The notes: generated from the letters alone by a model not told the origin. A DNA stretch of 39,380 nucleotides from an uncultured Flavobacteriaceae bacterium (GCA_963519505.1 CAUQOP010000001.1:1-39380), one strand, 5' to 3'. Numbered from the stretch's first letter, positions 1-39,380 are shown. A program made the numbers and translations.

Positions 1-7
1 AAAGAAG

Positions 8-1168
8 ATGAAAATGGAAAGATTTTTTATGAAAGGGAAATTTATAAGTAGCATACTAGTGCTGTTGGCACTGGCAGACTGCAGCCCCAAAGATAAATAT
101 GAATGGAATGCGGGAATGTCTGCACCTAAATATTATGGGAATGGAGGTCCAATGGTAGAGTATTTTTATAAAGGTAAAAGTGTAGCAGGGGCTTCCGCTA
201 ATATAGGTTTCTCTCCAGGCTGGGGAGTGACAGCGGGAGGCTATTCTGGAGGAGACCAATACAAGGATATCCCTGATAGTGTGGCTGTCAGCTGGATATG
301 TGCTACCGATAGAATAGAATACAGAGGAGGAGTGCGGCTTCCAAGGGAGCGCATGCTCGAGCTTTTTAAAAATGGGTTCAAGACAGTCTACGGTATGAAG
401 ACCACCTACACTTCTATAGTAGCAGGAATGGCTCCTGGAGGAAATGCTACCATATGGCTGCGTGGCTCTGAAAGACTTACAGAAATTATCAGGTTCAAAG
501 CAGAGAATAATGGAATATGGAAAGAACATGATGAAGACTATAACAGATATAAGAAAGAAGTAACTTCTTCAAAAAGTTATATAAATTCTGAAGGTAGTAT
601 ATTTCGGTATCTTCATGGCGTACCCTATGATGTTTGGGAAAAAGGAGACAAGGAATACGACTATGATATAGGTTTCAGCAGCGAGGGAGGACAAAAAATA
701 AAACCAAATGTTTTTACATTTTACACCAAAGACGGCACATGGTACCAGCCGAGCAAGGGAGATTTGGCTTTTCAGTCTGTAGACTGGCAGGAATGGGGTA
801 AATTTGAGTATAAAGAAAATAACAATCTTATTAAAAAACTAAAACTTCCTGTTGAGATTCATTTTTCGGTGGATTATAATGATGTTCTTTATATGGGGAA
901 CATCGTCCTTCCTCAAGATTTCAAGAAATATTTTGAAAACCAAGCCAATAACAGGATAACGATAGGGGTGGAAAAGAATTTAGAAACAGGTATTTTATGG
1001 GTATCGGGAAAGAAAGGCTTTCAAAAAGTCATGAGGTTTAAATTAGTAGAAGTTAAAGATGAAGAGCAGCCTTATTTTTATTCCCTGCCTAAAGGATTTA
1101 AGATTCCCAAATGGAACGGAAGAACTCCGATTGCCACGCCAGAGTTTGACTACTGGCAGGAGGAGTAG
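8..1168 (+). CDS. Lipoprotein, DUF2931-like T6SS immunity protein (Tli-type), paralogue A
   Basis: 386-aa ORF. The likely true start is the 8th codon (nt 29), giving the lipoprotein signal MKGKFISSILVLLALADC. By eye it is roughly 85-90% identical to ORF 38130..39296, which directly follows a DUF2235 effector. It shares the motifs PDS..V.W....Y.....LP and GMAPGG...WL.G with ORF 17368..18462. The immunity role is inferred from position and lipoprotein character. Confidence 0.6.
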   Translation: MKMERFFMKGKFISSILVLLALADCSPKDKYEWNAGMSAPKYYGNGGPMVEYFYKGKSVAGASANIGFSPGWGVTAGGYSGGDQYKDIPDSVAVSWICATDRIEYRGGVRLPRERMLELFKNGFKTVYGMKTTYTSIVAGMAPGGNATIWLRGSERLTEIIRFKAENNGIWKEHDEDYNRYKKEVTSSKSYINSEGSIFRYLHGVPYDVWEKGDKEYDYDIGFSSEGGQKIKPNVFTFYTKDGTWYQPSKGDLAFQSVDWQEWGKFEYKENNNLIKKLKLPVEIHFSVDYNDVLYMGNIVLPQDFKKYFENQANNRITIGVEKNLETGILWVSGKKGFQKVMRFKLVEVKDEEQPYFYSLPKGFKIPKWNGRTPIATPEFDYWQEE

Positions 1169-1476
1169 GGTGTAGTATAGAGAACATAGAACATTTTATA
1201 AATAATTACTATGGATATATTAAAGTTATAATAATATCATTTTTCCTTGCTCTCTTTTTCATAAATAGAAAATGCAAGAAAAATAAAGAAGAAAGACTGA
1301 GACAAAATAGAATTGCCGATAGACCATTAAAAAACACATATTCAACTTTTTCCTGTTAATAATCAGGGGAATACATGATATTTAGTAAAAAACTCTACAA
1401 AAGGTATTGTGTTTCAGATTTTTATTTTTAAATTTGGTTTTGTTTGAAATTTGAATAGATTTTAAAAAATTTTTAT

Positions 1477-1926
1477 ATGTTATCAAGTAAAGGCATTGGA
1501 GGAAATGAAGTTCCATTAGATGCGAGTGAAGCCATCTTTGAAATTCCTCAAAACAGAACACTTCTAGCACAAAAACTTACAGCAAATGACCCTGTAAAGC
1601 CAGAATTAGTGGAAGGGTTAAACTCCATTGAGGCGGTTTTCAGTCATTTTAAGCCAGAAATCAAAGTAGATTTTGAAGATGCTAATGGAGCTGTAAAAAT
1701 GGAAAATCTTCAGTTTAGAAACTTGGGGGATTTCGGTACAAAAGGAATTACTGCTCAAAGCAGTTTTTTAGCTGGACTAGAAACTGAAAAAGACCAATAC
1801 CAAAAGATTATCAAACAACTAAAAACTAACAAAATACTGAAAGCAGCTTTGGAAGATCCAGAAGCAAAGAAAGCTTTGTTTGATACCCTGCAAAATCTCA
1901 TCAAAGAACTAGATGGGAATAAGTAA
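1477..1926 (+). CDS. tssB: T6SS contractile sheath small subunit TssB (VipA family)
   Basis: 149-aa ORF lying 28 nt upstream of tssC. Size, position and overall family resemblance fit the small sheath subunit. No search was run. Confidence 0.8.
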   Translation: MLSSKGIGGNEVPLDASEAIFEIPQNRTLLAQKLTANDPVKPELVEGLNSIEAVFSHFKPEIKVDFEDANGAVKMENLQFRNLGDFGTKGITAQSSFLAGLETEKDQYQKIIKQLKTNKILKAALEDPEAKKALFDTLQNLIKELDGNK

Positions 1927-1954
1927 CACACTCATTTTTAATGTTTAAACTATT

Positions 1955-3337
1955 ATGGCAAAAGAATTACAACAAGCATCTTCTGCTTCTGAAAATATTT
2001 CACAGAAATTTAGTGATGAAACTCAAAAATCAGCTCTTTCTATTGAGAAAAGCCTTGAAAAATTGGCTCGCTACGGTGGATTTGATTTATTAGAAACCTC
2101 CATAGAAGGGGTGCAGAACATCAACCCTGATAGAAAAGCTAGAAGAAAAATTTTCCTTACTGAAAAAGGGAAAGAAAAAGAGCGTGAAACTTTGAAAAAA
2201 ACGCTTGAGCTTTGGGCAGATGTCATTAGTAAGAATGATGTACTGACAGATATGGTGGCTGATTGCGAAGACCAAAGAAAGTCTGCTGAAGACCTTCTTT
2301 CTAAAAACCTTGCTAGAGCTATAGAAATTACTAAAGAACTAGAAACTAACTACCGTACCATAGGACTTTTCTACAAGAATACAGAAGCTGATAAGGTTAA
2401 AAATATTACGGTAGTAAACGCTACTTTAGATCAGTTAAAAGACTTGGACAACACTCGTTTTATTGATACTATCCATGCTGAACTTTCTAACAATTATGAT
2501 AGATTAGACCTAAAAGATAACTATGGAATTTTGGTTATTCCAGGATATTTAGGATCTAATAAAGTGGTAGAAAAATGGGCAAAAATTGCTCACGAAAACA
2601 AAGTAATGCTCGTTACCGATTTCGAACATTTAGATGAACCTGATGATGTTATGGAAATGTTTGATCAAGCTTACCTAACGGGAGGAGATATTTACAGAGC
2701 TAATGTTCTTATGACTTGTAACTGGCTGGTAGGTAGAGGAAGATTTGAAGAAATAGATGAATTGGAAGATCTTTTTGTTCCACCTTCTGCTGCTTTAGCA
2801 GGGAAAATATATAAAACTCTAATGTCCCAAGTTACTGCTGGGAAAAAATTTGGAGGTATCAATGAAGTGGACGGAGTAAAATTTGACTTAAAGAAAAGTG
2901 AAATTGCCAACCTTGAAAACTTAGGATTGATTCCTATGGTGAATGAATATGGAAAAGTGATGGCTTTCTCTGGAAAAACACTATTTAATGGAGATAATCT
3001 AGGGCTTCAGACCTACTCTGTGGTAAGGGTTTTTGATTATGTTACCAAAGTTTTGATGGATTTCCTTAACCGAAGAGCATTTGAAAACTTCACTGCTGTA
3101 ACCAGAAAAGAAATTATGAATCAAATTGTAAGATTCTTGGACAGCATCACAGGACCTGGAAAACTGATAGAGAACTTCGAAATCCGAAGATTTGAACAAG
3201 ATCCTGTTCAAAAAGACAGAGTTCATCTTGATATTCATATGAAACCTTATTTCCCTGCAAAAAATTTCCTTATTAAAATGGATGGGCATAAAGGTGATGA
3301 AGGAAATCAATGGGAAACAGAATACGAACAAAAATAA
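1955..3337 (+). CDS. tssC: T6SS contractile sheath large subunit TssC (VipB family)
   Basis: 460-aa ORF of Bacteroidota-typical TssC length. It sits immediately after tssB and is followed by a hairpin terminator. Confidence 0.88.
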   Translation: MAKELQQASSASENISQKFSDETQKSALSIEKSLEKLARYGGFDLLETSIEGVQNINPDRKARRKIFLTEKGKEKERETLKKTLELWADVISKNDVLTDMVADCEDQRKSAEDLLSKNLARAIEITKELETNYRTIGLFYKNTEADKVKNITVVNATLDQLKDLDNTRFIDTIHAELSNNYDRLDLKDNYGILVIPGYLGSNKVVEKWAKIAHENKVMLVTDFEHLDEPDDVMEMFDQAYLTGGDIYRANVLMTCNWLVGRGRFEEIDELEDLFVPPSAALAGKIYKTLMSQVTAGKKFGGINEVDGVKFDLKKSEIANLENLGLIPMVNEYGKVMAFSGKTLFNGDNLGLQTYSVVRVFDYVTKVLMDFLNRRAFENFTAVTRKEIMNQIVRFLDSITGPGKLIENFEIRRFEQDPVQKDRVHLDIHMKPYFPAKNFLIKMDGHKGDEGNQWETEYEQK

Positions 3338-3484: not shown

Positions 3485-5296
3485 TTATTTGTTAATCAAT
3501 CTATAAGGGTAGATGTTTGCTGAATTTTTTTCTAGATAAAGTAAAAAACTATCGCACAAATATTGCCATTCAGTTTCTGATAAAGGAGGTTGAGAACTCT
3601 GATTTCTAGTAATATAAATATCTATTGTACGGGTAAATCCACCTTTATTAGAAACCTCTTTTTTGGTTCCTTTTTTTATTTCTATTCCTGAAATAGTCTG
3701 TTTAAAATGTTTATTTCCAAAATTTTTAATATCTGCAGCTGTAACTATTCGTCCTCTACTGAGCATAGAACTTCGATATTCTAAGATTTTATCTTGAACA
3801 GATAAACTTTTACGCCCCCCAAATGAAGACTTTAGCATTACTGCTTTTGAAAATGACAAAGACTTACTATTATCAATCTCTAGGTTTGTTCCTGGTTTAA
3901 TATCATTACCTTCCTCACCTGTTGTCAACCAATATGAAATATCACATGAAAGAGCGTCTCCATTAGCAGATGAAATAACAAGGTAAGGATTACTTGCTTG
4001 AACAAAATTTTTCTCTTTAGAGAGCTGCTCTAATGCTGCCACATTTTGCTGAATACTTCTGAGAGTTTCTCGTGTCATATCTCCACCAATACTTGAAAAA
4101 GCAGCTGATTCATCTTTTATCAGTTCCAGAAGATATTGTAATAGTTCTGAAGCATTTCTTTGGTCAAATCTTGCCACTCCTCCTCGCCTAAGCACAACAT
4201 TTATTCTTTGATTATCATTTTTGAGGTCAAGTCTATCTCCTTCATCATTTTTTACATAATCTAAATCTAGAAAATGGTCATCTGATTGTATAGAAACTAT
4301 ATCGAGCTTTCCATTCATTCTTCGAAATAATCGTGTATTTTTTATATTTACAACAGGGAAACAGTTTAAGTTAAAACTTACATTTTCAAACACCTCACTA
4401 GTAAGCATCTCCGAAAATTCTAATTTTAACCATATAATATCTTCTGCATCAGATAATTGATGTTCAGGAAAATTCTCTCTAAAAATAATAGGTTTCTCTG
4501 TCTGTTCCGCAAGAGATATTTTTTCCTTCAAAGTAAAAAAATAAGGCTTATAAAAATCATTTATTTCACTATAAATTTGTGATAAATAATGATAATTTTT
4601 AGATATAATCCCTTCTAAATCAATATTTTTTAGTTCTACATTATACCCCTCTTCAAATTGCATTTCCTTATCTCCAAAATAAATTTTGGCTTGTTTAAGA
4701 TGATAAAAAAAGAATTCTTTTTGATAAGAATTATTGATATCAATATAAAATTGTAGATTTTCTATATTTTTTTCTTTAAAACAACGGATTCCCAACCATA
4801 ATTCGCCAGATTTTAATGGGCGATTTGCTCTGCCAATCCTTTCTGTAAAAAAATAACTTTCTATTTTATTTAAATCATTTCCAAAGGCAATATACTCAAC
4901 CTTTGCTTTATGTAGTTGGGCTTCTATTGTTGGAGAAAAATAAATATCTTTGAGGGTGTTCTCAGAAGGATTAAATATATTTACAATATTTTTAGTTGTT
5001 TTAAAAGAATCATACAAAGATAGTGAAGGATTGTCTTCTTGTGGTTCTACTTGGACCAGTGAATAAGCTGGATGAACTCCTAATATATTCTCTGGAAATA
5101 AAAGTTCTAGAATGCGCTCTATCATACGAGAATTAGAACTTTCCAAAGCGAAACCCAAACGCTCCAATTCAGATGCTATAGCAGATAATAATAAACCTAC
5201 TATTGGATCAAAAGAATTTTCCGATTCTAATTCATTATATCCCCATAATCGCGATGCTCTGCGCAATATTCTATCCTTAATCCTGTCTTGATTCAT
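3485..5296 (-). CDS. tssF: T6SS baseplate subunit TssF
   Basis: 603-aa ORF. The N-terminal ..SFDPIVGLLLSAIASELERL.. resembles the DPxVERLLEGFAFL motif of the TssF/ImpG family, and the length is typical. Confidence 0.75.
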   Translation of the reverse strand: MNQDRIKDRILRRASRLWGYNELESENSFDPIVGLLLSAIASELERLGFALESSNSRMIERILELLFPENILGVHPAYSLVQVEPQEDNPSLSLYDSFKTTKNIVNIFNPSENTLKDIYFSPTIEAQLHKAKVEYIAFGNDLNKIESYFFTERIGRANRPLKSGELWLGIRCFKEKNIENLQFYIDINNSYQKEFFFYHLKQAKIYFGDKEMQFEEGYNVELKNIDLEGIISKNYHYLSQIYSEINDFYKPYFFTLKEKISLAEQTEKPIIFRENFPEHQLSDAEDIIWLKLEFSEMLTSEVFENVSFNLNCFPVVNIKNTRLFRRMNGKLDIVSIQSDDHFLDLDYVKNDEGDRLDLKNDNQRINVVLRRGGVARFDQRNASELLQYLLELIKDESAAFSSIGGDMTRETLRSIQQNVAALEQLSKEKNFVQASNPYLVISSANGDALSCDISYWLTTGEEGNDIKPGTNLEIDNSKSLSFSKAVMLKSSFGGRKSLSVQDKILEYRSSMLSRGRIVTAADIKNFGNKHFKQTISGIEIKKGTKKEVSNKGGFTRTIDIYITRNQSSQPPLSETEWQYLCDSFLLYLEKNSANIYPYRLINK

Positions 5297-5585
5297 ATTG
5301 TTTTTAAAACTAAAACAAAAATAAATATTTATTTTTTAATTTTAAATCATATTTAATCATTTATATAAAGTATAATAAATACCAAACAATATATAAATAA
5401 TATAAAAATTAACTCTTTAAAGAAAATCCTATCCTAAGATAAATGATCTCTTCTTGGACTTTTATTTATATTTATTAACTTTTATTTTCCTTTTAAAAAT
5501 AAAAAAGACTTTTATTATATTTTAATATACTTTTAAGAAATCCGTTTATTCCCTTGTTTAAGGGCGATAGAGCTCGTTTTGAAGG
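5297..5585. other. Extremely AT-rich non-coding stretch next to the iterons (candidate DNA unwinding element of oriV)
   Basis: About 290 nt with almost no G/C and no ORF, directly abutting the iteron array. Confidence 0.4.
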
Positions 5586-5909
5586 GAGTGGAATTCCGAA
5601 AATAGGAGAGTGGAATTCCGAAAATGAGAGGAGTGGAATTCCGAAAAACCCTTGTTTTCAAGGAGAGTGGAATTCCGAATAAAGTATTTTTAGAATTTTT
5701 TAGGGAGTGGAATTCCGAAAATGAGAAAATTTTGAACTCCTTAGGGGAGTGGAATTCCGAAAATGAGCGTTTTTCTCGTTGTTTTTTTCTCATATTTGAA
5801 GATTAGGGAGTGGAATTCCGAAAACGGGAGGAGTGGAATTCCGAAAATAGGAGAGTGGAATTCCGAAAATGAGAAAATTTTGAACGCTTTGGGGGAGTGG
5901 AATTCCGAA
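5586..5909 (+). repeat. Iteron array (candidate plasmid oriV)
   Basis: There are ten same-orientation copies of the core GAGTGGAATTCCGAA (consensus about RGAGTGGAATTCCGAAAAT). They start at 5586, 5608, 5631, 5665, 5705, 5747, 5808, 5831, 5853 and 5895. Two clusters have 22-23 bp spacing. The core contains the palindrome GGAATTCC. The array lies immediately 3' of the Rep-like gene. Confidence 0.85.
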
Positions 5910-5940: not shown

Positions 5941-7026
5941 TTAGAGTATTTTGGGATATCCTTCTGGAAGTATTTTCCCTGTATGAGTTTGTCTATACAA
6001 AATAATGATATATTCCTGAAATTTTTGTAAGAATGATTGACCAATAAATTCTGTTGCTTTTTTGCCATTTCTTCTATTATTTTTTACAAACTCCTTATAA
6101 GCTTCTTCTAATAAATTTCTGCTGTTTACTATATTTTTATAATGATAAGCAAGGTGGGTCATTTCATTTTCTGATAATTGATGTCTTCTTATGAAATATC
6201 GTAATCTTTGTCTCACCAAAGTAGCATCTTGGGTCTCTTCAGAAATGCTATCATCTTGGATTCTTTTTGTAGCATATGGTTTTATATGAATTCTATTCTT
6301 GTCAATGCTATAATTAAATGATGTTTGATTATACCTATCTAGATTCTCTCTTATTGGTTTCAAAAATTTACTGCAAAAATCTTTAGTTGTAGAGTAATTT
6401 ATTCCAAACTTTTCGTTAAAAGTCTCTAGTTTCAAAGTAGTTCCTTCATAAGGTATTTTTGCTAGCCAAATTGCGAAAATAACATGTTTGTTATTCCTAA
6501 TATTATAAACTAAATTATATAATGTTGGATTATATTCAGGAATTACAATAAGTTTTTTGAGCCAATAACTGCTGATTAAGAAAGAAGTATACCCGCGCTC
6601 ATCATAAGTAGGTGCGGTTATAAGGCCTCCAAAGGTCTTAATTTCCTTGCCTTTAGAATTTATTGAGTTATACCAACCCATTTTAAATTTTGTAAGAAAT
6701 TCAACGGCTTCTATGACTTGCTTGGAACTTCCACTTGGAGAAATTAAACTGTTTTTAATTTTCATTGAAGCAAATGTATTATGCTCTGACTCAAATTCTT
6801 CCTCAAAAAGAGACAACTGCATTGGTCTGTCTTGTGGTCGAAGCTGTTCATTTCTCAAATCTGCTGCAATATTAAATATCGCCCTAAGAGCATTAATAGG
6901 GATGTCTACTGCTTTATTATCTTCAAATAAAAAATCATCAACAAAACTATTCCCTAGTCTAATAATTTCGGTTTGGGTCAAGTTTTTGTAACTCTTTCGG
7001 ACTATTCTTTTCTCGTTATCTTTCAT
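5941..7026 (-). CDS. Putative plasmid replication initiator (Rep)
   Basis: 361-aa ORF adjacent to the iteron array and near ParA. The size is typical of iteron-binding Rep proteins. The assignment is mainly contextual. Confidence 0.55.
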   Translation of the reverse strand: MKDNEKRIVRKSYKNLTQTEIIRLGNSFVDDFLFEDNKAVDIPINALRAIFNIAADLRNEQLRPQDRPMQLSLFEEEFESEHNTFASMKIKNSLISPSGSSKQVIEAVEFLTKFKMGWYNSINSKGKEIKTFGGLITAPTYDERGYTSFLISSYWLKKLIVIPEYNPTLYNLVYNIRNNKHVIFAIWLAKIPYEGTTLKLETFNEKFGINYSTTKDFCSKFLKPIRENLDRYNQTSFNYSIDKNRIHIKPYATKRIQDDSISEETQDATLVRQRLRYFIRRHQLSENEMTHLAYHYKNIVNSRNLLEEAYKEFVKNNRRNGKKATEFIGQSFLQKFQEYIIILYRQTHTGKILPEGYPKIL

Positions 7027-7114: not shown

Positions 7115-7657
7115 TTATGGATAATCTACTAGCGGATGACTTTGCACTGTGTTATTCTCCTGCTCTATGATATCAAATTTTATTTTGCCGAAGCCTATTT
7201 CCTCTCTTTCAATTTTATGTTTTTTAGATAAATAGTATTGGTATAAATCTTCTTTACCTTTTTTTATTGACTCTTCATAAATCCATTTATAAATAGTTAT
7301 TTGATCTGATTTCACCTCCAAAATTTGGCTGTTGGCAATAAAAACATTGCGAATAATGGTAAAATTATTCCTTTCATAAGGAATTGGAATAAAATATCCC
7401 GTTCCTTTTTTGTTCTGAATAGAGTTTAGATAAAGTCTTATAATTTCTTTTTTCTTTATCATCAAAGGATTTCTAAAATTCCCCACTATTTCATGTGTTT
7501 TTTTTCGCCTTACATTATAATAAAGCCATTTTTGTGCATGAGAAAATTTATCTTCAATAAATCTATGAAACTTAAACAGACCAGTATTAATATTGTGATA
7601 AACCACAACCTCTCCTGTACTCAATTTTACTGCTGCTTCATAAGATTTATTTGTCAT
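7115..7657 (-). CDS. Hypothetical protein (last gene of the parA operon)
   Basis: 180-aa ORF on the same strand as parA, 5 nt after the preceding ORF. No motif was recognised. Confidence 0.45.
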   Translation of the reverse strand: MTNKSYEAAVKLSTGEVVVYHNINTGLFKFHRFIEDKFSHAQKWLYYNVRRKKTHEIVGNFRNPLMIKKKEIIRLYLNSIQNKKGTGYFIPIPYERNNFTIIRNVFIANSQILEVKSDQITIYKWIYEESIKKGKEDLYQYYLSKKHKIEREEIGFGKIKFDIIEQENNTVQSHPLVDYP

Positions 7658-7662: not shown

Positions 7663-8097
7663 CTAAAATTTATCCTTGTATTTTGTTTTCAACTCCTGTA
7701 CTATTTCTGAAAATAGTTTCATTTGAGAAAAATCTAACTCCCCTTTTGTAAAAATGGTATAAAAATGATAGTTTTTTAAGTATTCAGAATCTTCCTCTGT
7801 CAGATAAGTGGATGTTATTTTCACTTCTCCAGGATTTTCCCTTCTTCCTGGTCTATACCTCACATTGGCTTTTCTTTGTTCCATCTTCCCTTTTGTCTGA
7901 CGGAGTAACTCTATTCCATCACTTATAGCTTTGGCATTGGTATATTCCAAGTTTTCATTTTTTACAATCTCATATTTTACGAATTCTTTAAGCCATTCCC
8001 AATCTGCTAGATAAATCCTAAAGCCATATTTAACCATTTTAGGTTTTTCTTCTTCTGGTTTTGAATCCAATATATCTAATTGAAAAACATTGTCCAT
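7663..8097 (-). CDS. Hypothetical protein, possible ParB-analogous partition adaptor
   Basis: 144-aa ORF starting 1 nt after the parA stop, which suggests translational coupling. This is the usual position of a centromere-binding partner. The segment KYGFRIYLADWEWLKEFV could be a ribbon-helix-helix element. The functional call is weak. Confidence 0.35.
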   Translation of the reverse strand: MDNVFQLDILDSKPEEEKPKMVKYGFRIYLADWEWLKEFVKYEIVKNENLEYTNAKAISDGIELLRQTKGKMEQRKANVRYRPGRRENPGEVKITSTYLTEEDSEYLKNYHFYTIFTKGELDFSQMKLFSEIVQELKTKYKDKF

Positions 8098-8098: not shown

Positions 8099-8848
8099 TT
8101 ATCCTTCTATTTTCTTTATAATTTCTTTAACTAACTGTTTATAATCTTCACTTGCTCTTGATAAAGGCGCAACCTGAAAAATAGTTTTTCCTTCTTTTTT
8201 AGCATTTTCTACATTTACATCTTGCCGAATATAGGTCTCCAAAAAATACTGTCCTGCTTGTTGTTTTGCTAAATCACTATATACTCTAAAATTTTTAGTG
8301 TTAGTAAGAACTTTATTGAAGAAAAAACCTAAAAATTGTAACTTCGGATTATAATTATCTATAATTCTTTTTACTGATGGTAATAATTCATTAATCCCTT
8401 CAATAGAATACTCCTCTGCCTCAATTGGTGAAAGTACATAATCTGAAGCACAAAGTGCAATTTCTCCCAAACCCACTCTGCCACTTAATGGACGAGGCGG
8501 ACAATCTATTATAATGTAATCCAAATTCATTTTACTAGATAATATATCTATCATATCTTTCAAGACTGTTCTTTTATAATCTGTCTCCTCTACCCCTCTA
8601 TCTCCTGCTAATATGAATAAACTTTCTCCTTTTTGTGTCAAACGAAAATTACCTGTCTTCTCAATAAAATTTTTAACCGTATAAGGAAAATCTTTTGGTA
8701 TCTTATATCCAATTGACAAATTCCTTTGTGAATCAAAATCTATAATCAAAACGCGCTTTTTCATTTCTGCAAACGACGCTCCTAAATGAATAGATGTTGT
8801 GGTTTTTCCTACACCTCCTTTTTCAGTAATGATAGATATTACCTTCAT
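8099..8848 (-). CDS. parA: ParA/Soj-family partition ATPase
   Basis: 249 aa. It has the deviant Walker A ITEKGGVGKTTTS at the N-terminus and DCPP in the Walker B region. Confidence 0.9.
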   Translation of the reverse strand: MKVISIITEKGGVGKTTTSIHLGASFAEMKKRVLIIDFDSQRNLSIGYKIPKDFPYTVKNFIEKTGNFRLTQKGESLFILAGDRGVEETDYKRTVLKDMIDILSSKMNLDYIIIDCPPRPLSGRVGLGEIALCASDYVLSPIEAEEYSIEGINELLPSVKRIIDNYNPKLQFLGFFFNKVLTNTKNFRVYSDLAKQQAGQYFLETYIRQDVNVENAKKEGKTIFQVAPLSRASEDYKQLVKEIIKKIEG

Positions 8849-27574: not shown

Positions 27575-27658
27575 GGTAGGGTAATTTAAAATAATGAAGT
27601 AGACAAAAAACTAGTACCCTAACTTTAGAATTTCATTGGTAATTTTATATGAAAGACA

Positions 27659-27688
27659 CTTTGATAGTATCATTTGATACTATCAAAG
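27659..27688. repeat. Perfect 30-bp palindrome
   Basis: CTTTGATAGTATCA tt TGATACTATCAAAG has 14-bp arms and a 2-nt centre. It lies 41 nt beyond the stop of the DUF234-type ATPase gene. It could be a terminator or a dimeric protein binding site. Confidence 0.6.
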
Positions 27689-27729
27689 TCATGTTTTTAA
27701 TCACTAAGTAAAAAACTCAGTATTAGTTA

Positions 27730-29049: not shown

Positions 29050-29324
29050 ACCACAAACATAAGAAATGTGCATTTCCGAAACAAACATTTCGAAAAAAAT
29101 ATTTAATTTATAAAAATCTATGAATCAAAGTTGAAGGTTTTATTGATGTATATTTTGAGATTTATAATTATTTATAGTTCCAAAAACTATCTTAAAAGAA
29201 AACAAATAAATAAAACGGGAAAAAGAACTATTTTTAGAAAAGATTATTTGGAGGAATTATAGTTTCAAAAAAGGGTCGGTTTTTAGGAAAAATTTAACGG
29301 TTTAATTATTTCATATTAAAATGG

Positions 29325-29379: not shown

Positions 29380-30540
29380 ATGACAGAAACATTACATTAT
29401 TTTCCTGTTCATTGGATAGATGGAATGAAGATTAACAAAGGACATTTTTTATCTGTCCAAGATAGTATGAGTGATATGCTCCGTGATGGAATTGGCATCC
29501 ATTTATCAATGCAAAATTATGGTCTGCTTCCTGTTGAAGACTCACTTAAACTGAGTTTAAGTATTGATAATCATAAACTTCTTCGTGTACGAGTAGAAGA
29601 ATGTCAAGCAGTAACTCCAAACGGCTCCCGAATATCCATTGGAAAAGGTGTTGCTGAACAATTGCAATTATCCATTCCTTATCCAGAAGCAGCATATGAG
29701 TTAAAAGACGATGAAAATATAACACTTTTAGCATGTATTTCTGTAAACCCATTTAAACGAATTCCTTTTGGGGAGCCAGATCCAGATGAGAATCCGCCAA
29801 GATATCCATTTACACAACCTGAATATAATCTACATTTAATTCCCGAAAATGAGCTAAAAAACACCGTAGGGTTTGGGCTTAGCTACCTTACAATTGGCAA
29901 GGTTTTAGTAAATGCTGGAGAGTCGCGTATAGATGAAAATTATATTCCTCCTTGCGTGAATGTTTCTTCACATTTAAAATTAAAGGATTTATATTCATCT
30001 ATAGAACATTTTTATGGTCAAATGGAGCTTTATTCAGTGCAGATAGAGCAGAAAATTCGGGTAAAAAATCAAAATAATTCCTTAGCAGTAATGATTGGGC
30101 TTTTAGCAGAAAAGACACTTAATTATTTAGGAATGGAGATCAATCGTTTCCGTTGGTTGTCACCACATCGTCCACCTGTTGAAATGTTCCTTTCTGTAGT
30201 GAGTTTAGCAAGAGTTTTGAAAAATTTCATTGATGCTAAATCTGGTGCAGGTAAGGAGGAACTACTCAATTATTTTTCGGAATGGTGTAATCTGACACAA
30301 GGAAATTTTGAGCAAATATTTACTGAGGTTATTAATTCTGATTACGATCACAATCAGATGGATATTGTCATCAAAAAAATTGTAGTTTTTATGAAAACAT
30401 TAGAGGAACTGTTTTCAATTCTCAACCGCTTGGATTATATCGGCAAGAAGCGAGACGGTAGTATTTTTGTTTCTGAAAACACAGACGAACGAGAGGCTGT
30501 TGTCCATGCAAAAAGAAGTAGAACTTTTTTGGCTGATTAG
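29380..30540 (+). CDS. tssK: T6SS baseplate subunit TssK
   Basis: 386 aa. The N-terminal PVHWIDGMKINKGHFLSVQD parallels the canonical TssK start (W.EGM.L.PQHFQQ). Confidence 0.85.
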   Translation: MTETLHYFPVHWIDGMKINKGHFLSVQDSMSDMLRDGIGIHLSMQNYGLLPVEDSLKLSLSIDNHKLLRVRVEECQAVTPNGSRISIGKGVAEQLQLSIPYPEAAYELKDDENITLLACISVNPFKRIPFGEPDPDENPPRYPFTQPEYNLHLIPENELKNTVGFGLSYLTIGKVLVNAGESRIDENYIPPCVNVSSHLKLKDLYSSIEHFYGQMELYSVQIEQKIRVKNQNNSLAVMIGLLAEKTLNYLGMEINRFRWLSPHRPPVEMFLSVVSLARVLKNFIDAKSGAGKEELLNYFSEWCNLTQGNFEQIFTEVINSDYDHNQMDIVIKKIVVFMKTLEELFSILNRLDYIGKKRDGSIFVSENTDEREAVVHAKRSRTFLAD

Positions 30541-30609
30541 ATCTTTGATCTTGATTAAAATAACCTACAACAATTAAAACAATAAACAACTCCAAACAGA
30601 CAGTAAAAA

Positions 30610-31122
30610 ATGGAAGTATTAAATAAGACAGAGCGTAGAAAATCATTTTTATTTTTCTTAATATTTTTTGGTCTTACGATGGGATTGCTTCTTATAGCAG
30701 TGTTTTTCAATGTTGCTTTTCCTTTTGTAGAAAATCAACTATTAAAAAAAGAAAACCAAAAGATGAAACAGGAAATGGAAATTCAAAATCGATTTTCGTT
30801 TCAGTTGGAGCAGGTGAAAGGTGCGGTCGATTCTATTGGTATTGCAGGACAAAATGATTATTTTAACGAAAAACTAGCACTTTCTGTCTTGGCAGATATG
30901 TATAAACAACTTCCTAAGGACTCTTTACAAAACAAGACAATGTATAACAATACCATCATGACTTACAAAAGTCTGATTGATGCCAAAAAAGAAATCAAAC
31001 ATTTGTCTATGAATAGAGAAACCATGGATAGTTTGAGTAGTCTAAACAAAGCTCTAAAGGAAGAATATGATAAAATGAAAACTGATCTAGAAGTATGTAG
31101 ACAAATTTATCAATCCCAATAA
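30610..31122 (+). CDS. tssO: Candidate T6SS-iii transmembrane protein TssO
   Basis: 170 aa with a single N-terminal TM helix (FLFFLIFFGLTMGLLLIAVFF) followed by a coiled-coil-like region. The size and topology are those described for TssO, and it lies directly after tssK. Confidence 0.55.
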   Translation: MEVLNKTERRKSFLFFLIFFGLTMGLLLIAVFFNVAFPFVENQLLKKENQKMKQEMEIQNRFSFQLEQVKGAVDSIGIAGQNDYFNEKLALSVLADMYKQLPKDSLQNKTMYNNTIMTYKSLIDAKKEIKHLSMNRETMDSLSSLNKALKEEYDKMKTDLEVCRQIYQSQ

Positions 31123-31125
31123 GAG

Positions 31126-31638
31126 ATGAATATTCTTAAGTTTTTTCTATTTGGGTTTAGTTTCATTGCTGTAAATTTTGCTTTCAGTCAAGAAAATGAA
31201 GAAATCCCTTGTAATATTTTAGAAAATCAACAGAAACTGCACAAAAAACATTTTTTGAGTGGGACCCCTCTTCTTTTGATGGTTGATAATGCTGAAAACC
31301 TTTATGTAAAAGCGCAGATTGGAAAAAGAACAGATAAAATATTTTTATATCTGAATGTTTTAGCACCAAATGTCTGTATTGAAAAAGGGAGGAATGTTGA
31401 TATTTATTTTCATTCTGGCGAAATTCTACGCCTAAAGAATGATTTTCGACTGAATTGTGAAGGAATATGGGTAAAACAATTGTCCCAAAAAGAGCTTCAG
31501 AAATTTACAGAATATCCTATCCAGCATATCAAGATTTTTTCTTACCATAAAGATTATGAGTTGAATATTTCTGAGGAACAAGACCAAAATATTAAATCCC
31601 AGATAGCATGTTTGGAACGACTTAAAGTAAGAAAATAG
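31126..31638 (+). CDS. Secreted/periplasmic hypothetical protein inside the T6SS operon
   Basis: 170 aa with the signal peptide MNILKFFLFGFSFIAVNFAFS|QE and no lipobox Cys. It starts 3 nt after the previous stop. Confidence 0.5.
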   Translation: MNILKFFLFGFSFIAVNFAFSQENEEIPCNILENQQKLHKKHFLSGTPLLLMVDNAENLYVKAQIGKRTDKIFLYLNVLAPNVCIEKGRNVDIYFHSGEILRLKNDFRLNCEGIWVKQLSQKELQKFTEYPIQHIKIFSYHKDYELNISEEQDQNIKSQIACLERLKVRK

Positions 31639-31669
31639 ATAAAATTTTAACTCAAAAGACAAAAATAAA

Positions 31670-32371
31670 ATGTCAAGCAGGTTGCCCTCTCTTAATCTTC
31701 GTTTGGGAGATTTTCAAGCCCATAAACAAATTGATAATGAGAATGAAATCTCCAATGTTCTAGTTAGAACAGATTCAGAGATGAAGAAGCATACAATTAC
31801 TCTTACCATTACAGATAAGGAAATTGGGACAGCAAAAATTGAGGTAGAGGGACAAGTGCTAAAAATCCCAACATATCAATTGAGAGTTACTGATGATAAA
31901 ACTGAAGAAATTAGAGATTTTCAGGTCATTAGAGACTTTCCAAAGATGAAAAAGAAAGAGATTAAAAAATCATGGCTGTCTTTTTTAGGAATTTCTTGGT
32001 TTGATAGTGAAAATTATTTTTACGAAAATGTGTCTTTTGAACCTAAATACAATGAAATAGAGAAATTTCAACTGGTAAAACACCGTCATTTGGAAGAAAA
32101 CCAGCTAGTTTATGAGCTTCAAAATGCTGAAAATAAAGTCATTGTTTTTTCTGGAAGTATCCCTAAACTAAATGATAAATCAGAAAATAACCCATATTTT
32201 TGGATTATAGATCATGTTGAAGGTCAGAGTTTTATAGGAGATATATTGTATCGTGAGAAATTTTTGAAATTAACTCCCCAAATAGAACTTTTATTAATAA
32301 AAAGGAAGAAAACCCCTAAAAATATAGAGAGTAACAACAAGGGAGAAATCCAGCGGTTTATTTATATATAA
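31670..32371 (+). CDS. Hypothetical T6SS-embedded protein (possible TssP-type component)
   Basis: 233-aa ORF between the tssO-like gene and tssE with no signal peptide. The assignment is positional only. Confidence 0.35.
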   Translation: MSSRLPSLNLRLGDFQAHKQIDNENEISNVLVRTDSEMKKHTITLTITDKEIGTAKIEVEGQVLKIPTYQLRVTDDKTEEIRDFQVIRDFPKMKKKEIKKSWLSFLGISWFDSENYFYENVSFEPKYNEIEKFQLVKHRHLEENQLVYELQNAENKVIVFSGSIPKLNDKSENNPYFWIIDHVEGQSFIGDILYREKFLKLTPQIELLLIKRKKTPKNIESNNKGEIQRFIYI

Positions 32372-32385
32372 TTAGTAAATGAAAA

Positions 32386-32814
32386 ATGAAAGGACTATAT
32401 TATAAACTTCCCTTGGATTTTCAAGGGTTGATGAAGCGAAAAGACATAGATAAAATATCGATAGAAGATTCTATTCGACAGCATATTTTTTTGATTTCTA
32501 CAACCTCTTTTGGGGAATGCAAATTTGATGAGAGTTTTGGTTCAGAGATTTGGGAAATGGATTTTGACCTGCTCAAAAGCAACAACAACTTACGAGAGAT
32601 GATGATGAATAGTCTAAAGAGAGATATTTCTAAAAACGAGAAACGAGTAGTTTTGGAGGATATAAGTGTTGAAATTTCAGATTATAATCTTGGAACAATG
32701 GGCAAAACAAGAATGAAAAAGCGGGTGCAACTTACCCTCAAAATGCTGATAAAAGAGACCAATCGTCCATTATTTTTTCAAAATTCCTTTTTTGTAGGAC
32801 CAATTTCTTATTAG
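32386..32814 (+). CDS. tssE: T6SS baseplate wedge protein TssE (GPW/gp25 family)
   Basis: 142 aa. SIRQHIFLISTTSFGECKFDESFGSEIWEMDFD is the gp25-like core. Confidence 0.85.
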   Translation: MKGLYYKLPLDFQGLMKRKDIDKISIEDSIRQHIFLISTTSFGECKFDESFGSEIWEMDFDLLKSNNNLREMMMNSLKRDISKNEKRVVLEDISVEISDYNLGTMGKTRMKKRVQLTLKMLIKETNRPLFFQNSFFVGPISY

Positions 32815-36343: not shown

Positions 36344-38173
36344 ATGAGCAGAACAAGGATTGTAAAAGGTAAAATAACCGAACGCGTAAAAGGAGATATT
36401 TCTATTTACTCTGCGAGTAATATAATAGAAACTTCGCTGCAGAGTATCGTAGAAACAGGAAAAGAAAAAGGAATTAGTTTTGGGCAGCCATCAAAACCGA
36501 CTGAGTATCAACCAGAAAACACTATAATTCTCTACATAGGAATGTTTTTTGACGGAACAGGGAATAATCGTTTTAATTCTGAAAGTCTGTATTACACGAA
36601 AGTAAAAGGAAATAATGATAGAATAAAATCATCTGAAATTCCCACTCAGTTGTCTTTTACTCTCACACCAGAAAAGATAAAGGAGAAAGATATTAGTAAA
36701 ATAAATATTTCGAATAGAGACAGCTATTGGAACCCCTACTCCAACATTGTAAAACTCCATGACTTATACAAAGAAAAGAGTGAAGCAAAAGGGAAAACTC
36801 ATATTATCAAACAATATGTTGAGGGCATAGGTACTGAAAAGTACAAGGAAGACAGTGTTGGTGGTTCAAGTATAGGAAGGGGAGATACAGGAATTATAGC
36901 GAAGGTAGAAAGAGGAATCAAAGATTTAGTAAGAGAAAAAATCGCTACTCTTCCCAAAGACAAAAAGATTTATAAAATCGTATTTGATGTTTTTGGGTTC
37001 AGCAGAGGAGCAGCGGCAGCCAGACATTTTTGTAATGAGGTAAAAAAACCAGCCTATTATGTAACAAGAACCAAACGGGACCCTTATGACAAATATGACA
37101 GAAATGCAAGAATACTTACGGACGAAAAAGATCTAGTGAAGCATGCAGGTGGAATTTTGGGAACGGAACTAAATAAAATAGGCCTTAAACCCTACGAAGA
37201 GACCTATAACAATATAGAAATAAGATTTTTAGGATTATTTGATACGGTAGTTTCGGATTTAGTAGTGAAAGAAAATTTAGGTTATATAGCTACTCTTTTT
37301 ACTACTAAACCATGGATACCTATCATAGCACAGGAGTATTTAGAAGACATTAAAACCAATATATCAGGTTTAGGAATAAAAAAAGTCTTCCAAATAAGAG
37401 CAAATGATGAGTGGCGGGCGAACTTTGCCTATACTCCTACAGAGGATGGCTACACACTATATATGCTGGGAGCTCATTCTGATATAGGCGGAGGCTATGC
37501 GGAGCTGGATAAGTATACTTCTATACTAGGTTTTTTCGATGCTACAAAGGGCGGTGAGGAAATCTTTAAACAGCAAGAAAAAATCCGAAAATATTTCATA
37601 GATAATAATTACTGTAAGGAAAATGAGATATGGTTTGAGAAGATCTATGAGCATACTTCAGGTTTCGCTATAGAGTCTTCCCCTACGGAGACCACCACCA
37701 TTTATAAAAAGAAGATTTCTGATCATTATATCCTGAAAACTTCCCGCTATATTTCTAACAAATACAGCCTTGTGCCAATGTATGTCATGCTCCAAAAAGC
37801 CATTGATTATGGAGTGCCTTTTTATAAAGATTATAATGAGGCAAAAAAAGGAGGTAATAGGATCGACTACCCTTTTGAATATGAAATCCCAGATACAGAG
37901 GAGTTTGAAATGCTGAGAGAGTATTTAAAGAAAATGTTAGATGTAAGCAAAGATGAGAGTAAGAAGAGCTACAGTCTTTCATCACCAGAAATGTTTAAAC
38001 ATATACGCAATCGTTATGTGCATTTGTCCTCGCATTATGCAGGGCTTGACACTTTAGGGCATAAAGATGGCGACCACCATTTTTCAGGAGATTTATTATT
38101 TATTAACCGACCTGTAAAATACAAAGAAGATGAAAATGGAAAGATTTTTTATGAAAGGGAAATTTATAAGTAG
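36344..38173 (+). CDS. DUF2235 alpha/beta-hydrolase T6SS effector (Tle1-like phospholipase), VgrG-linked
   Basis: The hallmarks are FFDGTGNN, FGFSRGAAAARHF, GLFDTVVSD and LGAHSDIGGGY. It starts 2 nt after the vgrG stop. Confidence 0.85.
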   Translation: MSRTRIVKGKITERVKGDISIYSASNIIETSLQSIVETGKEKGISFGQPSKPTEYQPENTIILYIGMFFDGTGNNRFNSESLYYTKVKGNNDRIKSSEIPTQLSFTLTPEKIKEKDISKINISNRDSYWNPYSNIVKLHDLYKEKSEAKGKTHIIKQYVEGIGTEKYKEDSVGGSSIGRGDTGIIAKVERGIKDLVREKIATLPKDKKIYKIVFDVFGFSRGAAAARHFCNEVKKPAYYVTRTKRDPYDKYDRNARILTDEKDLVKHAGGILGTELNKIGLKPYEETYNNIEIRFLGLFDTVVSDLVVKENLGYIATLFTTKPWIPIIAQEYLEDIKTNISGLGIKKVFQIRANDEWRANFAYTPTEDGYTLYMLGAHSDIGGGYAELDKYTSILGFFDATKGGEEIFKQQEKIRKYFIDNNYCKENEIWFEKIYEHTSGFAIESSPTETTTIYKKKISDHYILKTSRYISNKYSLVPMYVMLQKAIDYGVPFYKDYNEAKKGGNRIDYPFEYEIPDTEEFEMLREYLKKMLDVSKDESKKSYSLSSPEMFKHIRNRYVHLSSHYAGLDTLGHKDGDHHFSGDLLFINRPVKYKEDENGKIFYEREIYK

Positions 38174-39296
38174 CATATTGGTGCTGATGGTGCTGGCAGG
38201 CTGCAGCCCCAAAGATAAATATGAATGGAATGCAGGAATGTCTGCACCTAAATATTACGGGAATGGAGGTCCAATGGTAGAGTATTTTTATAAGGGTAAA
38301 AGTGTAGCAGGGGCTTCCGCTAATATAGGATTTGATCCAGGCTGGGGAGTGACAGCAGGAGGCTACTCTGGAGGAGAACAATACAAGGATATCCCCGATA
38401 GTGTGGCGGTTCGTTGGGTCTGCGCTATAGACAGAATAGAATATAGAGGTGGAGCACGGCTTCCGAGGGAGCATATGCTCGAGCTTTTTAAAAATGGGTT
38501 CAAGACAGTCTACGGCATGAAAACCACCTACACCTCTATAGTAGCAGGAATGGCTCCTGGGGGAAATGCTACCATATGGCTGCGTGGCTCCGAAAGACTT
38601 ACAGAAATTATCAGGTTCAAAGCAGAGAATAATGGAATATGGATGGAACATGATGAAGATTATAACAAATATGAAAGAGAAACTATTACTTCAAAAGAAT
38701 ATATAAATTCTGAATTTAATATATTTCGGTATCTTCATGGTGTGCCCTATGATGTTTGGGAAAAAGGAGACAAGGAATATGACTATGATATAGGTTTCAG
38801 CAGCGAGGAAAAAGATGTAACACCTTATATGGTTTTTTACACCAAAGACGGCACATGGTATCAGCCGAGCAAGGGAGATTTGGCATTTCAGTCTATTGAT
38901 TGGCAGGAATGGGGTAAATTTGAGTATAAAGAAAATAACAATCTTATTAAAAATCTGAAACTTCCTGTTCAGATTCATTTTTTATTTGAGTATAAAGGAG
39001 GAAATTATAGTACAGGAATAATTCTTCCCCAAGATTTCAAGAAATATTTTGAAAACCAAGCCAATAACAGAATAACGATAGGGGTGGAAAAGAATTTAGA
39101 GACAGGTATTTTATGGGTATCGGGAAAGAAAGGCTCTCAAAAAGTAATGAGGTTTAAAGTATTTAAAGCCAAGGAAGATGACATGGGAGATTTTTATCCA
39201 GGAGGTTATTCCTTTCCTAAAGGATTTAAAATTCCCAAGTGGAACGGAAGAACTCCTATCGCCACACCAGAGTTTGACTACTGGCAGGAGGAGTAG
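38130..39296 (+). CDS. Lipoprotein, DUF2931-like immunity protein, paralogue B
   Basis: 388 aa. The likely start is nt 38151 (MKGKFISSILVLMVLAGC). Its 5' end overlaps the effector's last codons. It is a close paralogue of ORF 8..1168. Confidence 0.62.
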   Translation: MKMERFFMKGKFISSILVLMVLAGCSPKDKYEWNAGMSAPKYYGNGGPMVEYFYKGKSVAGASANIGFDPGWGVTAGGYSGGEQYKDIPDSVAVRWVCAIDRIEYRGGARLPREHMLELFKNGFKTVYGMKTTYTSIVAGMAPGGNATIWLRGSERLTEIIRFKAENNGIWMEHDEDYNKYERETITSKEYINSEFNIFRYLHGVPYDVWEKGDKEYDYDIGFSSEEKDVTPYMVFYTKDGTWYQPSKGDLAFQSIDWQEWGKFEYKENNNLIKNLKLPVQIHFLFEYKGGNYSTGIILPQDFKKYFENQANNRITIGVEKNLETGILWVSGKKGSQKVMRFKVFKAKEDDMGDFYPGGYSFPKGFKIPKWNGRTPIATPEFDYWQEE

Positions 39297-39305
39297 GGTG
39301 TATTG

Positions 39306-39376
39306 TTAACCGACCTGTAAAATACAAAGAAGATGAAAATGGAAAGATTTTTTATGAAAGGGAAATTTATAAGTAG
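39306..39376 (+). pseudogene. Duplicated remnant of the last about 23 codons of effector 36344..38173
   Basis: 39306-39380 is identical to 38103-38177. It encodes ..NRPVKYKEDENGKIFYEREIYK* without the rest of the gene. Confidence 0.65.
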
Positions 39377-39380
39377 CATA
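39333..39380 (+). CDS. 5' end of a further immunity-gene copy running off the window (the same gene as 8..1168 if the molecule is circular)
   Basis: MKMERFFMKGKFISSI.. is identical to nt 8-55. Confidence 0.6.
   Translation, partial: MKMERFFMKGKFISSI

Follow-up and report, generated by a model that had tools for sequence, protein, structure and literature searches.

A contig of 39,380 nucleotides assigned to an uncultured Flavobacteriaceae bacterium (GCA_963519505.1 CAUQOP010000001.1:1-39380; hereafter the window, meaning this whole stretch of DNA) encodes for the most part a type VI secretion system of subtype iii (T6SS-iii), the Bacteroidota form of this contact-dependent killing apparatus, together with plasmid replication and partition genes. 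We conclude that the window is very probably one full copy, plus a 55-nt assembler overlap, of a circular, low-GC, non-conjugative Weeksellaceae plasmid of about 39,325 bp that carries this T6SS-iii. The case is built from assembled sequences: a circular map, the homology of the replicon to that of a known plasmid, the gene content, many sister plasmids with swapped cassettes, and a chromosomal twin of the T6SS bearing iterons and a truncated rep gene. A preliminary description of the window had proposed a closed circular plasmid of about 39.3 kb with a T6SS-iii, and this proposal is upheld by contigs that span the junction, by the closure of a sister plasmid within clpV, by the backbone and iterons of the Riemerella plasmid pRCAD0416RA-1, and by structural matches of the initiator to RepE.

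The first 55 nt of the window (plus strand) are identical to nt 39326-39380, and 55 nt is the maximal overlap between prefix and suffix. A third copy of the terminal 55-mer, also pointed out in the preliminary description, occurs on the plus strand only at 38123-38177, and extending the match leftward by 20 nt yields a true repeat of 75 nt (38103-38177, at the start of immB, and 39306-39380). In each of two paralogous immunity genes, immA and immB, this repeat spans the ribosome-binding region and the initial 48 nt of coding sequence, and the terminal overlap is part of the copy preceding and entering immA. Circularization gives a length of 39,325 bp and the order immB, immA, tssB, tssC, and the junction breaks no open reading frame (ORF). 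The ends of the window correspond to the branch vertex of a repeat longer than k in a de Bruijn graph, and the overlap alone therefore cannot tell a circle from a contig that stopped at the repeat.

Evidence for the circle comes from related contigs, which were collected by exact-protein look-up with Rep and other window proteins across metagenomes and assemblers. Five of them (L004, L005, L006, L007 and L009) carry vgrG, a 609-aa effector gene, immB (388 aa), immA (386 aa), tssB and tssC in this order, and their DNA alignment to the window is unbroken through the end of immB, the 75-nt repeat and the start of immA. A sixth independent contig from a different sample (L142) has the same order from immB to tssC. 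In the spanning relatives the repeat has three mismatches in its immA copy, which accounts for the fact that those assemblies did not break there. The arrangement predicted earlier, with paralogue A directly after paralogue B and then tssBC, is thus found in six contigs; the accompanying caveat, that the overlap might be a repeat-induced breakpoint or might hide a longer immunity array, is contradicted by relatives with the immB/immA cassette of the window, which have exactly two copies in the predicted order. Furthermore, the two ends of Ga0104940_1000392 (L005), a contig of 37,768 bp with 97% identity to the window, overlap exactly over 79 nt within the single-copy clpV gene, and this closing 79-mer does not recur in the parts of the contig that were examined. 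As this contig closes in clpV and spans the junction of the window, the two assemblies are circular permutations of each other.

At least 15 contigs from different samples and assemblers carry the backbone and/or its T6SS within a size range of 35.1-41.2 kb (35,141; 35,529; 36,140; 36,182; 37,675; 37,768; 37,975; 37,988; 38,248; 38,329; 38,452; 38,935; 38,992; 39,732; and 41,233 bp). Exact-protein look-ups for proteins identical to the window Rep, TssG, NlpC/P60 peptidase, TssC and TssP returned no contig larger than 50 kb. The window itself has a GC content of 32.5%, and scans of it detected no tRNA and no Rfam family, hence no rRNA. All of its large ORFs encode T6SS, effector/immunity, plasmid maintenance or defence functions, and no essential chromosomal gene was present among the ORFs scanned, in agreement with the earlier statement that only T6SS, maintenance and accessory genes are carried. 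GC skew and composition track gene orientation, and the origin was not located by this means.

The Rep-like gene, ten iterons, AT-rich stretch and ParA operon named in the preliminary description were all recovered by position and sequence, and together they form a replication and partition module. The rep gene (5941..7026, minus strand) encodes a 361-aa RepE-like initiator of the iteron type. Next to it lie ten exact copies of the 15-nt iteron GAGTGGAATTCCGAA (5586..5909, plus strand), arranged as two triplets with 22-23 nt spacing and four singles, where 0.06 copies are expected by chance. An adjacent AT-rich stretch (5297..5540, 12.7% GC) is a putative DNA-unwinding element of oriV and/or the promoter region of tssF. 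Upstream of rep, on the same strand and separated by short gaps, are parA (8099..8848), which encodes a small partition ATPase (Pfam AAA_31/CbiA/ParA), p144 (7663..8097), a putative ParB/ParG-type partition adaptor by its position after parA, and p180 (7115..7657), a conserved backbone gene. No other part of the window is as rich in AT as the intergenic region between parA and nlpC (8849-9339; 12-14% GC), in which short repeats, both direct and inverted, are found (9020-9045/9168-9193 and 9014-9034/9104-9124). This region is a candidate for a centromere and for divergent promoters, and it also contains the point, at window position 9100, at which homology to chromosomal copies begins.

The proteins Rep, p180 and p144 had no Pfam or NCBIfam match at curated thresholds, and a PDB sequence profile search with the Rep alignment returned only noise. 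Weak matches to Rep3_C, the second winged-helix domain (WH2), were present in 11 of 25 Rep homologues, with a best E value of 5e-4. An AlphaFold model of Rep built with 25 homologues, with a mean predicted local distance difference test score (pLDDT) of 68, was compared with the PDB by Foldseek: its top 15 matches were all RepE or RepE54 of mini-F, followed by RctB, with E values of 7e-5 to 7e-4, a probability of 1.00 and template modelling (TM) scores of 0.27-0.45. The window resembles the mini-F RepE/iteron replicons of the Rep_3 type, which replicate by the theta mode, in its RepE-like fold, in direct repeats about 22 nt apart and in an adjacent AT-rich stretch; it differs in the lack of significant similarity between the Rep sequence and Rep_3 models, in the location of rep downstream of the par genes, and in iterons that are 3' of rep. 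We conclude that the replicon is of the iteron type and probably works like RepE, a likeness that does not place Rep in the Rep_3 sequence family.

When Rep was used as a tblastn query against PLSDB, all ten matches were on Riemerella, Capnocytophaga, Flavobacterium, Myroides and Chryseobacterium plasmids. The best of these was pRCAD0416RA-1 of Riemerella anatipestifer (NZ_CP073240.1, circular, 37,356 bp; 74% by tblastn), which belongs to the same bacterial family, is of similar size and shares the order rep-p180-p144-parA. Protein identities are 75% for rep, 58% for p180, 69% for p144, 85% for parA and 86% for the serine resolvase. The identical 15-nt iteron occurs nine times beside the pRCAD0416RA-1 rep gene, in DNA that is about 69% identical to that of the window, and no other initiator is annotated on that plasmid. 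The assembly of pRCAD0416RA-1 is based on long reads, and the molecule was recovered by extraction of plasmid DNA (PMC9379664). By analogy with this homologous backbone, Rep would bind the iterons of the window and support autonomous replication in the host. Unlike the window, pRCAD0416RA-1 carries resistance genes (tet(X), floR, erm(F), blaOXA and others) and insertion sequence elements rather than a T6SS, and its relaxase/mobilization gene has no homologue in the window. The two share no megablast similarity. The nucleotide search against plasmid databases that had been recommended earlier was uninformative, in that megablast of window positions 1-25000 against PLSDB gave no match, and the Flavobacteriales plasmids were found with the Rep protein; kinship to known plasmids is thus visible only at the level of proteins and iterons.

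The earlier statement that the window has no recognizable relaxase, type IV coupling protein (T4CP) or tra genes is supported. Pfam and NCBIfam searches of the window detected no relaxase, MobC, T4CP, type IV secretion system or integrase, and tblastn with the relaxases and accessory proteins of pRCAD0416RA-1 and of a Capnocytophaga T6SS-iii plasmid (described below) found no match in the window. The serine resolvase is its only complete recombinase.

The T6SS genes are distributed over several blocks of the plasmid. Pfam and NCBIfam matches identify TssC, TssD (three copies), TssE, TssF, TssG, TssH, TssI and TssK, and TssB is assigned by position and conservation. Downstream of the junction, tssC (1955..3337, plus strand; Pfam TssC, 775 bits) encodes the large sheath subunit, and the small sheath subunit is probably encoded by tssB (1477..1926, plus strand), which is directly upstream of tssC in all related loci at 76-100% identity and has a sub-threshold VipA match (E 0.054); a PDB sequence search with TssB returned nothing informative. 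The baseplate gene tssF (3485..5296, minus strand; Pfam T6SS_TssF) precedes the replication module. On its other side, the NlpC/P60 peptidase gene (9340..9987), whose position is conserved in Chryseobacterium loci, opens a plus-strand block with tssG (10040-10975; Pfam TssG) and tssN (11022-12029; Pfam TssN, 235 bits). The minus strand encodes clpV/tssH (18476-20992; Pfam AAA_2/ClpB_D2-small) and an adjoining PKD-domain protein (21027-22085; Pfam PKD) that we take to be TssP, which consists of a transmembrane helix and PKD-like domains (PMC10781749). The remaining genes are on the plus strand: tssK, tssO, p170, p233 and tssE (29380..32814), with a TssO Pfam match of 90 bits, then three hcp/tssD paralogues (33032-33418, 33453-33839 and 34020-34406) and vgrG/tssI (34482-36341). 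The first two hcp genes form a 421-nt tandem repeat of 77% identity, and the hcp triplet (33032-34406) is conserved in Chryseobacterium and Epilithonimonas loci.

The nearest T6SS proteins outside the host species are those of chromosomal T6SS-iii loci of Chryseobacterium and Epilithonimonas (TssC 84-91% identical). These loci contain the same gene set as the window, including NlpC/P60, p170 and p233, with tssK, tssO, p170, p233 and tssE in the same order, and have no tssR within 10 kb. They are collinear with one another (ClpV/TssP-NlpC-G-N-K-O-p170-p233-E-F-B-C-Hcp-VgrG) and lack rep and parA within 10 kb, whereas the window has clpV-tssP and tssF in inverted orientation and hcp-vgrG ahead of tssBC. 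By this measure the main locus of the family is present on the plasmid in full, with its genes rearranged. The preliminary description had called the T6SS-iii entire, which holds relative to the main locus of Chryseobacterium and Epilithonimonas but not with respect to TssR: tblastn with the Capnocytophaga TssR was negative in the window, which contains no vWA-domain ORF of about 790 aa. Nor was a tssQ gene recognized; the p170 and p233 proteins have no family match at curated thresholds, and one of them could be a divergent TssQ. The membrane-complex genes particular to Bacteroidota, tssN, tssO and tssP, are represented, the last by the PKD-domain protein, and no ORF scanned had a Pfam match to TssJ, TssL or TssM, the membrane complex of T6SS-i. 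Among T6SS-iii loci, tssR is unidentified in 31%, and tssO, tssQ and tssR are often not found in Flavobacteriales, although TssR is essential in Bacteroides fragilis (PMC10781749). The T6SS of the plasmid is presumably active.

A near-identical T6SS also resides on chromosomes of the same species. An identical TssB protein is present in 4,506 index blocks, including contigs of 230-619 kb that carry the same rearranged T6SS deep inside (for example at 366-387 kb of a 619-kb contig). In these chromosomal loci (L132-L139, e.g. L132:1-14136; L025:544-5748; L026; L030; L134:14042-15055; L137:14092-14888), the genes next in line after tssF are glmM, one for an RDD protein, one for a TPR protein, and rlmL, and an immB/immA-type cassette is found in some of them (L136 and L138). 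Homology to the plasmid ends in one of two ways. In six contigs (L132, L133, L135, L136, L138 and L139) it stops at window position 5602, at the first iteron; in five others (L134, L137, L025, L026 and L030) it stops inside rep, at 6587-6807, after three or four iterons, and the first 75 or so rep codons and all of p180, p144 and parA are missing. The rep gene is intact in the window and truncated in every chromosomal copy in which a remnant was seen. At the other chromosomal junction (L039:1-2580), rseP (peptidase M50), a tRNA-Asn(GTT) gene (1989-2063) and a frameshifted N-terminal fragment of a tyrosine integrase precede the T6SS, and homology to the window starts at nt 9100 and continues into nlpC-tssG. 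An integrative plasmid using att sites was considered and dropped, for the 3' end of this tRNA-Asn gene and the region of the integrase remnant have no meaningful match in the window, and no att-like repeat was found. A look-up of the empty chromosomal site with the GlmM homologue P0121 returned one contig of 4.9 kb.

Because rep remnants and iterons border a locus with the plasmid-type rather than the family-type gene order, we infer from sequence comparison that a plasmid once integrated and, after losing its replication and partition genes, gave rise to the chromosomal copy. Plasmid and chromosomal contexts interleave in a tree of the 4.3-kb tssB-tssC-tssF block, built by neighbour joining with no bootstrap and no correction for recombination; this pattern suggests repeated exchange. 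The assembled contigs indicate the coexistence in one natural population of an episomal form and of a chromosomal form with a decayed replication region, a finding new to this analysis. Two related contigs (L024:4657-6831 and L027) retain the iterons and a 360-aa rep and have lost window positions 7330-9263, which comprise most of p180 and all of p144 and parA; the deletion joins rep directly to nlpC-tssG, and their tssBCF block clusters with that of the chromosomal truncated-rep contig L030. Two broader ideas, that the Rep-like gene belongs to the T6SS locus and that the T6SSs of the entire family arose from plasmids, were rejected, as neither rep nor parA is within 10 kb in any of the Chryseobacterium, Epilithonimonas, Capnocytophaga and Flavobacterium T6SS loci that were retrieved. 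Homologues of Rep with about 57-62% identity (P0029, P0031, P0064, P0072, P0108 and P0110) do occur on Chryseobacterium and Epilithonimonas isolate contigs of 0.4-4.9 Mb, three of which measure 3.1-4.9 Mb, and none is within 10 kb of tssC in the retrieved T6SS loci. Their presence on such contigs suggests that the Rep replicon family is common in Weeksellaceae chromosomes in the form of integrated copies.

Several observations weigh against reading the window as an autonomous plasmid with a complete secretion system. The terminal overlap is in the 75-nt repeat and is, taken alone, compatible with a repeat-induced contig end. The circle is drawn from assembled contigs, and for the physical state of the DNA in the source sample the clustering of contig sizes gives indirect support. 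Rep has no family match at curated thresholds, the TM scores of its structural matches are low and its model is of moderate confidence, and homologues of about 60% identity are located on megabase-sized Chryseobacterium contigs. As TssR was not found, the T6SS is only putatively functional and might depend on a chromosomal gene. Finally, the near-identical chromosomal T6SS in the same species makes it conceivable that the assembly represents a cointegrate or a mixed consensus.

Three alternatives were weighed. The window could be a linear piece of a chromosome or larger element that stopped at the 75-nt repeat, the overlap being a de Bruijn branch artefact that perhaps hides a longer immunity array. 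The position of the overlap, exactly in a repeat present three times in the window, fits this explanation, as do the tandem arrays of immunity paralogues in certain relatives, such as the three DUF2931 genes of L138, and the fact that the locus has a chromosomal version. Against it stand the six contigs that lead from immB through immA to tssB across the junction, the closure of the sister contig in the unique clpV gene, the clustering of sizes at 35-41 kb, the lack of chromosomal genes in the window, and the intact tssF-rep-parA-nlpC-tssG link, which joins the two ends of the chromosomal version. A linear origin is largely refuted by these data, and we regard it as extremely improbable. It is also quite unlikely, if slightly less so, that the source cells hold a cointegrate, in which the plasmid has recombined into the near-identical chromosomal T6SS and the resulting tandem duplication assembles as a circle. 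Plasmid and chromosomal copies share more than 30 kb of 95-98% identity as a substrate for such an event, chromosomal loci have kept iterons and a truncated rep, and several contigs (L029 and L031) terminate precisely at a breakpoint, window 6799-6802, as would be the case for a graph branch where both forms co-occur. The added branches of a cointegrate, at about 5602/6802 and about 9100, would nevertheless usually break a short-read assembly, and many samples give unbroken contigs of 35-41 kb; moreover, the replicon family is autonomous in Riemerella (PMC9379664), and the rep gene of the window is intact whereas all chromosomal copies seen are truncated.

The most serious of the three alternatives, though still improbable, accepts the circular topology and takes the window for a chimeric consensus, blended from plasmid and chromosomal variants that are present together; its combination of cassettes may then not exist on any one molecule. 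The source appears to be metagenomic, sister plasmids differ mainly by swaps at three variable regions (V1, V2 and V3), and the conserved blocks of the variants are 95-98% identical, all of which would favour such a mixture. Other contigs have however assembled the same cassettes: L149, L152 and L154-L156 share the gene sizes and order of the window V3 (ATPase_2, resolvase, AAA_14 and 939-aa ATPase), L004-L007 carry the V1 of the window, and L004-L006 share much of its V2. A single circular plasmid remains the preferred interpretation of the window.

The variable regions were delimited by comparison with the sister plasmids, in which conserved blocks are 95-99% identical and whole cassettes are replaced at three places: V1 from about 35900 across the junction to 1339, V2 at 12031-18311, and V3 at 22332-29167. 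In the window, the annotation of this cargo with Pfam, NCBIfam and PADLOC reveals two Tle1-like phospholipase effectors, predicted by sequence, each followed by genes for DUF2931 lipoproteins that probably confer immunity. V1 (36344..39296, plus strand) contains a Tle1-like effector gene (36344-38173) and immB (38130-39296), which encodes a DUF2931 lipoprotein, and continues across the junction into immA (8..1168, plus strand). In sister contigs, different effector/immunity sets take the place of V1. The product of immA, a DUF2931 lipoprotein (Pfam E 4e-19) with the N-terminal lipobox LADC, is a putative Tle1 immunity protein, and the two paralogues are 85% identical in protein and 88% in DNA. 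V2 (12062..18462, plus strand) is absent or replaced in the sister plasmids L032-L038. Its first gene, p336, has no Pfam or NCBIfam match at curated thresholds and is followed by genes for a PAAR-like DUF4280 protein (13083-13559), a Tle1-like effector (13574-15541), a DUF2931 immunity protein (15546-16664), p212 (16740-17378) and a further DUF2931 immunity protein (17368-18462). A weak Pfam match and similarity to other Tle1 genes in relatives identify p212 as a C-terminal Tle1-like fragment, and its location between two DUF2931 immunity genes makes it probably a relic of an effector cassette swap.

V3 (22401..29088, minus strand) is a defence island that differs in content between sister plasmids. 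It encodes a 939-aa TrlF/Ppl-like ATPase (22401-25220), an AAA_14/DUF4143 protein assigned by PADLOC to PDC-S01 (25159-26412), the serine resolvase (26417-26992; 86% identical to that of pRCAD0416RA-1) and an ATPase_2/DUF234 protein assigned to PDC-S27 (27730-29088; PADLOC). Beside tssP is a fragment of a second serine-recombinase gene (22156..22386, minus strand; 56-65% identity to resolvase residues of about 104-185 by tblastn), and a full 190-aa resolvase is found at this site in the sister plasmids L033, L035, L046 and L148. The TrlF/AAA_14 cassette accordingly looks as if it had been inserted between two resolvase copies. The site between tssP and tssK is a point of defence-gene swapping in many copies (L014-L021, L032, L035, L043, L045-L051 and L148), where Thoeris-like TIR/Macro genes, DNA methylases, OLD-family nucleases, and NTase pairs or PemK are found instead. 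A protein identical to the 191-aa resolvase is present in 1,146 index blocks, including those of chromosomal contigs larger than 200 kb.

A second, related backbone is present in the same metagenome collections (L014:17770-20576, L015:15243-19131 and L045:457-4397), with identities of about 26% for Rep, 42-47% for p180, about 30% for p144 and 61-74% for ParA, and with different iterons or none. In L014 and L015 this backbone is accompanied by SprB/PKD adhesin-like cargo and the identical resolvase, and in L045 it adjoins the tssK-vgrG block of a T6SS of the window type. The last case suggests that more than one kind of replicon may carry the T6SS. Some sister plasmids have a tssF divided between two ORFs (142 and 459 aa; L022:3018-4785) or a shortened tssC (424 aa; L034:1767-3041); these copies may carry an inactivated T6SS, or the split and short ORFs may be assembly errors.

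Only one genome record is near-identical, a 22-kb contig from a metagenome-assembled genome labelled 'uncultured Riemerella sp.'. Compared with the window, this contig has 93-96% DNA identity in the conserved blocks and 96-100% protein identity in TssB, TssC, TssF, Rep and ParA. The glmM gene flanking the chromosomal copies has 98-99% identity only to metagenomic proteins, and is 86-87% identical to those of Bergeyella porcorum, Cruoricaptor, Chryseobacterium and Riemerella. Together, these matches point to an uncultured Weeksellaceae species related to Riemerella and Bergeyella as the host. Several of the samples bear the label HMPC12; if this stands for the Human Microbiome Project they would be human-associated, and an oral origin is our guess.

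Plasmids that carry a T6SS-i are well documented. A 2026 survey covering 43,213 RefSeq plasmids lists only two with a T6SS-iii, a 28-kb Capnocytophaga plasmid (NZ_CP027233.1) and a 316-kb Hymenobacter plasmid (PMC13098142). The former, plasmid unnamed1 of Capnocytophaga sp. oral taxon 864 F0512 (28,295 bp), resembles the window in being a small circular plasmid of a human oral member of the Flavobacteriales that consists largely of a T6SS-iii, and its ParA and serine resolvase are 38% and 81% identical to those of the window. It differs in having an unrelated Rep (no tblastn match), a MOBP relaxase, an annotated TssR, a TssC of 59% identity and another gene order, and it lacks large effector/immunity or defence cargo. 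From these differences in Rep, relaxase, TssR and TssC, it follows that small plasmids captured T6SS-iii more than once. The closest TssC on PLSDB plasmids (74%) belongs to two circular Bernardetia sp. plasmids of comparable size, NZ_CP147013.1 (42,203 bp) and NZ_CP147019.1 (51,249 bp); the first of these, on inspection, contains the T6SS-iii blocks tssB-tssC, ClpV-PKD and NlpC-TssG-TssN-TssE. Unlike the plasmid described here, they come from Cytophagia of marine algae, carry Rhs/DUF6531 effectors, and have no homologue of the window Rep in a PLSDB protein search. The tblastn search of PLSDB with TssC also matched Tenacibaculum plasmids of 131 and 154 kb, and the literature searched contained no paper on the Bernardetia plasmids or on the present plasmid family. 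The preliminary description had called a small plasmid of this kind unusual; it is rare, but the Capnocytophaga (PMC13098142) and the 42- and 51-kb Bernardetia plasmids make that statement too strong. T6SS-iii plasmids are rare but already on record, and the window is another, on a replicon family known from pRCAD0416RA-1. A mobile T6SS-iii in a community of a human body site is also found on the integrative and conjugative elements (ICEs) GA1 and GA2 of gut Bacteroidales, as reported in the account given in PMC9113992, which cites Garcia-Bayona et al. 2021. These ICEs integrate and transfer themselves by conjugation, whereas the window has an iteron origin and lacks integrase, relaxase, T4CP and tra genes.

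Taken together, the module suggests how the plasmid might be maintained. The 361-aa RepE-fold initiator would bind the ten 15-nt iterons and open the adjacent stretch of 12.7% GC, leading to theta replication, and parA, p144 and p180 would partition the plasmid copies. The serine resolvase would resolve multimers, and it may also mark the spot at which defence cassettes are swapped. The rest of the plasmid encodes a T6SS-iii composed of tssB, C, D (three copies), E, F, G, H, I, K, N, O and P, the NlpC/P60 peptidase and the two conserved genes p170 and p233. We also put forward, tentatively and as a possibility that falls somewhat short of being probable, that the plasmid and the chromosomal T6SS are two still-exchanging states of one element, in which the chromosomal locus (from tRNA-Asn to glmM) is a domesticated plasmid and cassettes are shuffled at three hot spots. 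The chromosomal rep-par module would then have been deleted to different extents, plasmid and chromosomal copies might still recombine or re-integrate, as the interleaving of contexts in the tssBCF tree suggests, and a second, distantly related replicon also adjoins part of the T6SS locus (L045).

T6SS-iii is otherwise known on chromosomes and Bacteroidales ICEs, and the window adds a third, independent plasmid lineage. The plasmid it represents is compact and apparently non-conjugative, turns up in dozens of human-associated metagenomes, and has variable cassettes and a chromosomal twin. The backbone of the multidrug-resistance plasmid pRCAD0416RA-1 circulates, with different cargo, in relatives of its host from human-associated samples. 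The fixation of a T6SS in a genome can be studied along the natural series that leads from plasmid, through integrated copy with truncated rep, to a locus from which rep is entirely gone. Should the plasmid be active, an interbacterial weapon would be a strain-variable, losable and horizontally movable trait in this bacterium. If plasmid and chromosomal locus are indeed two states of one element, a whole T6SS-iii would be gained, lost and moved between episome and chromosome within a human-associated population in the absence of conjugation machinery of its own.

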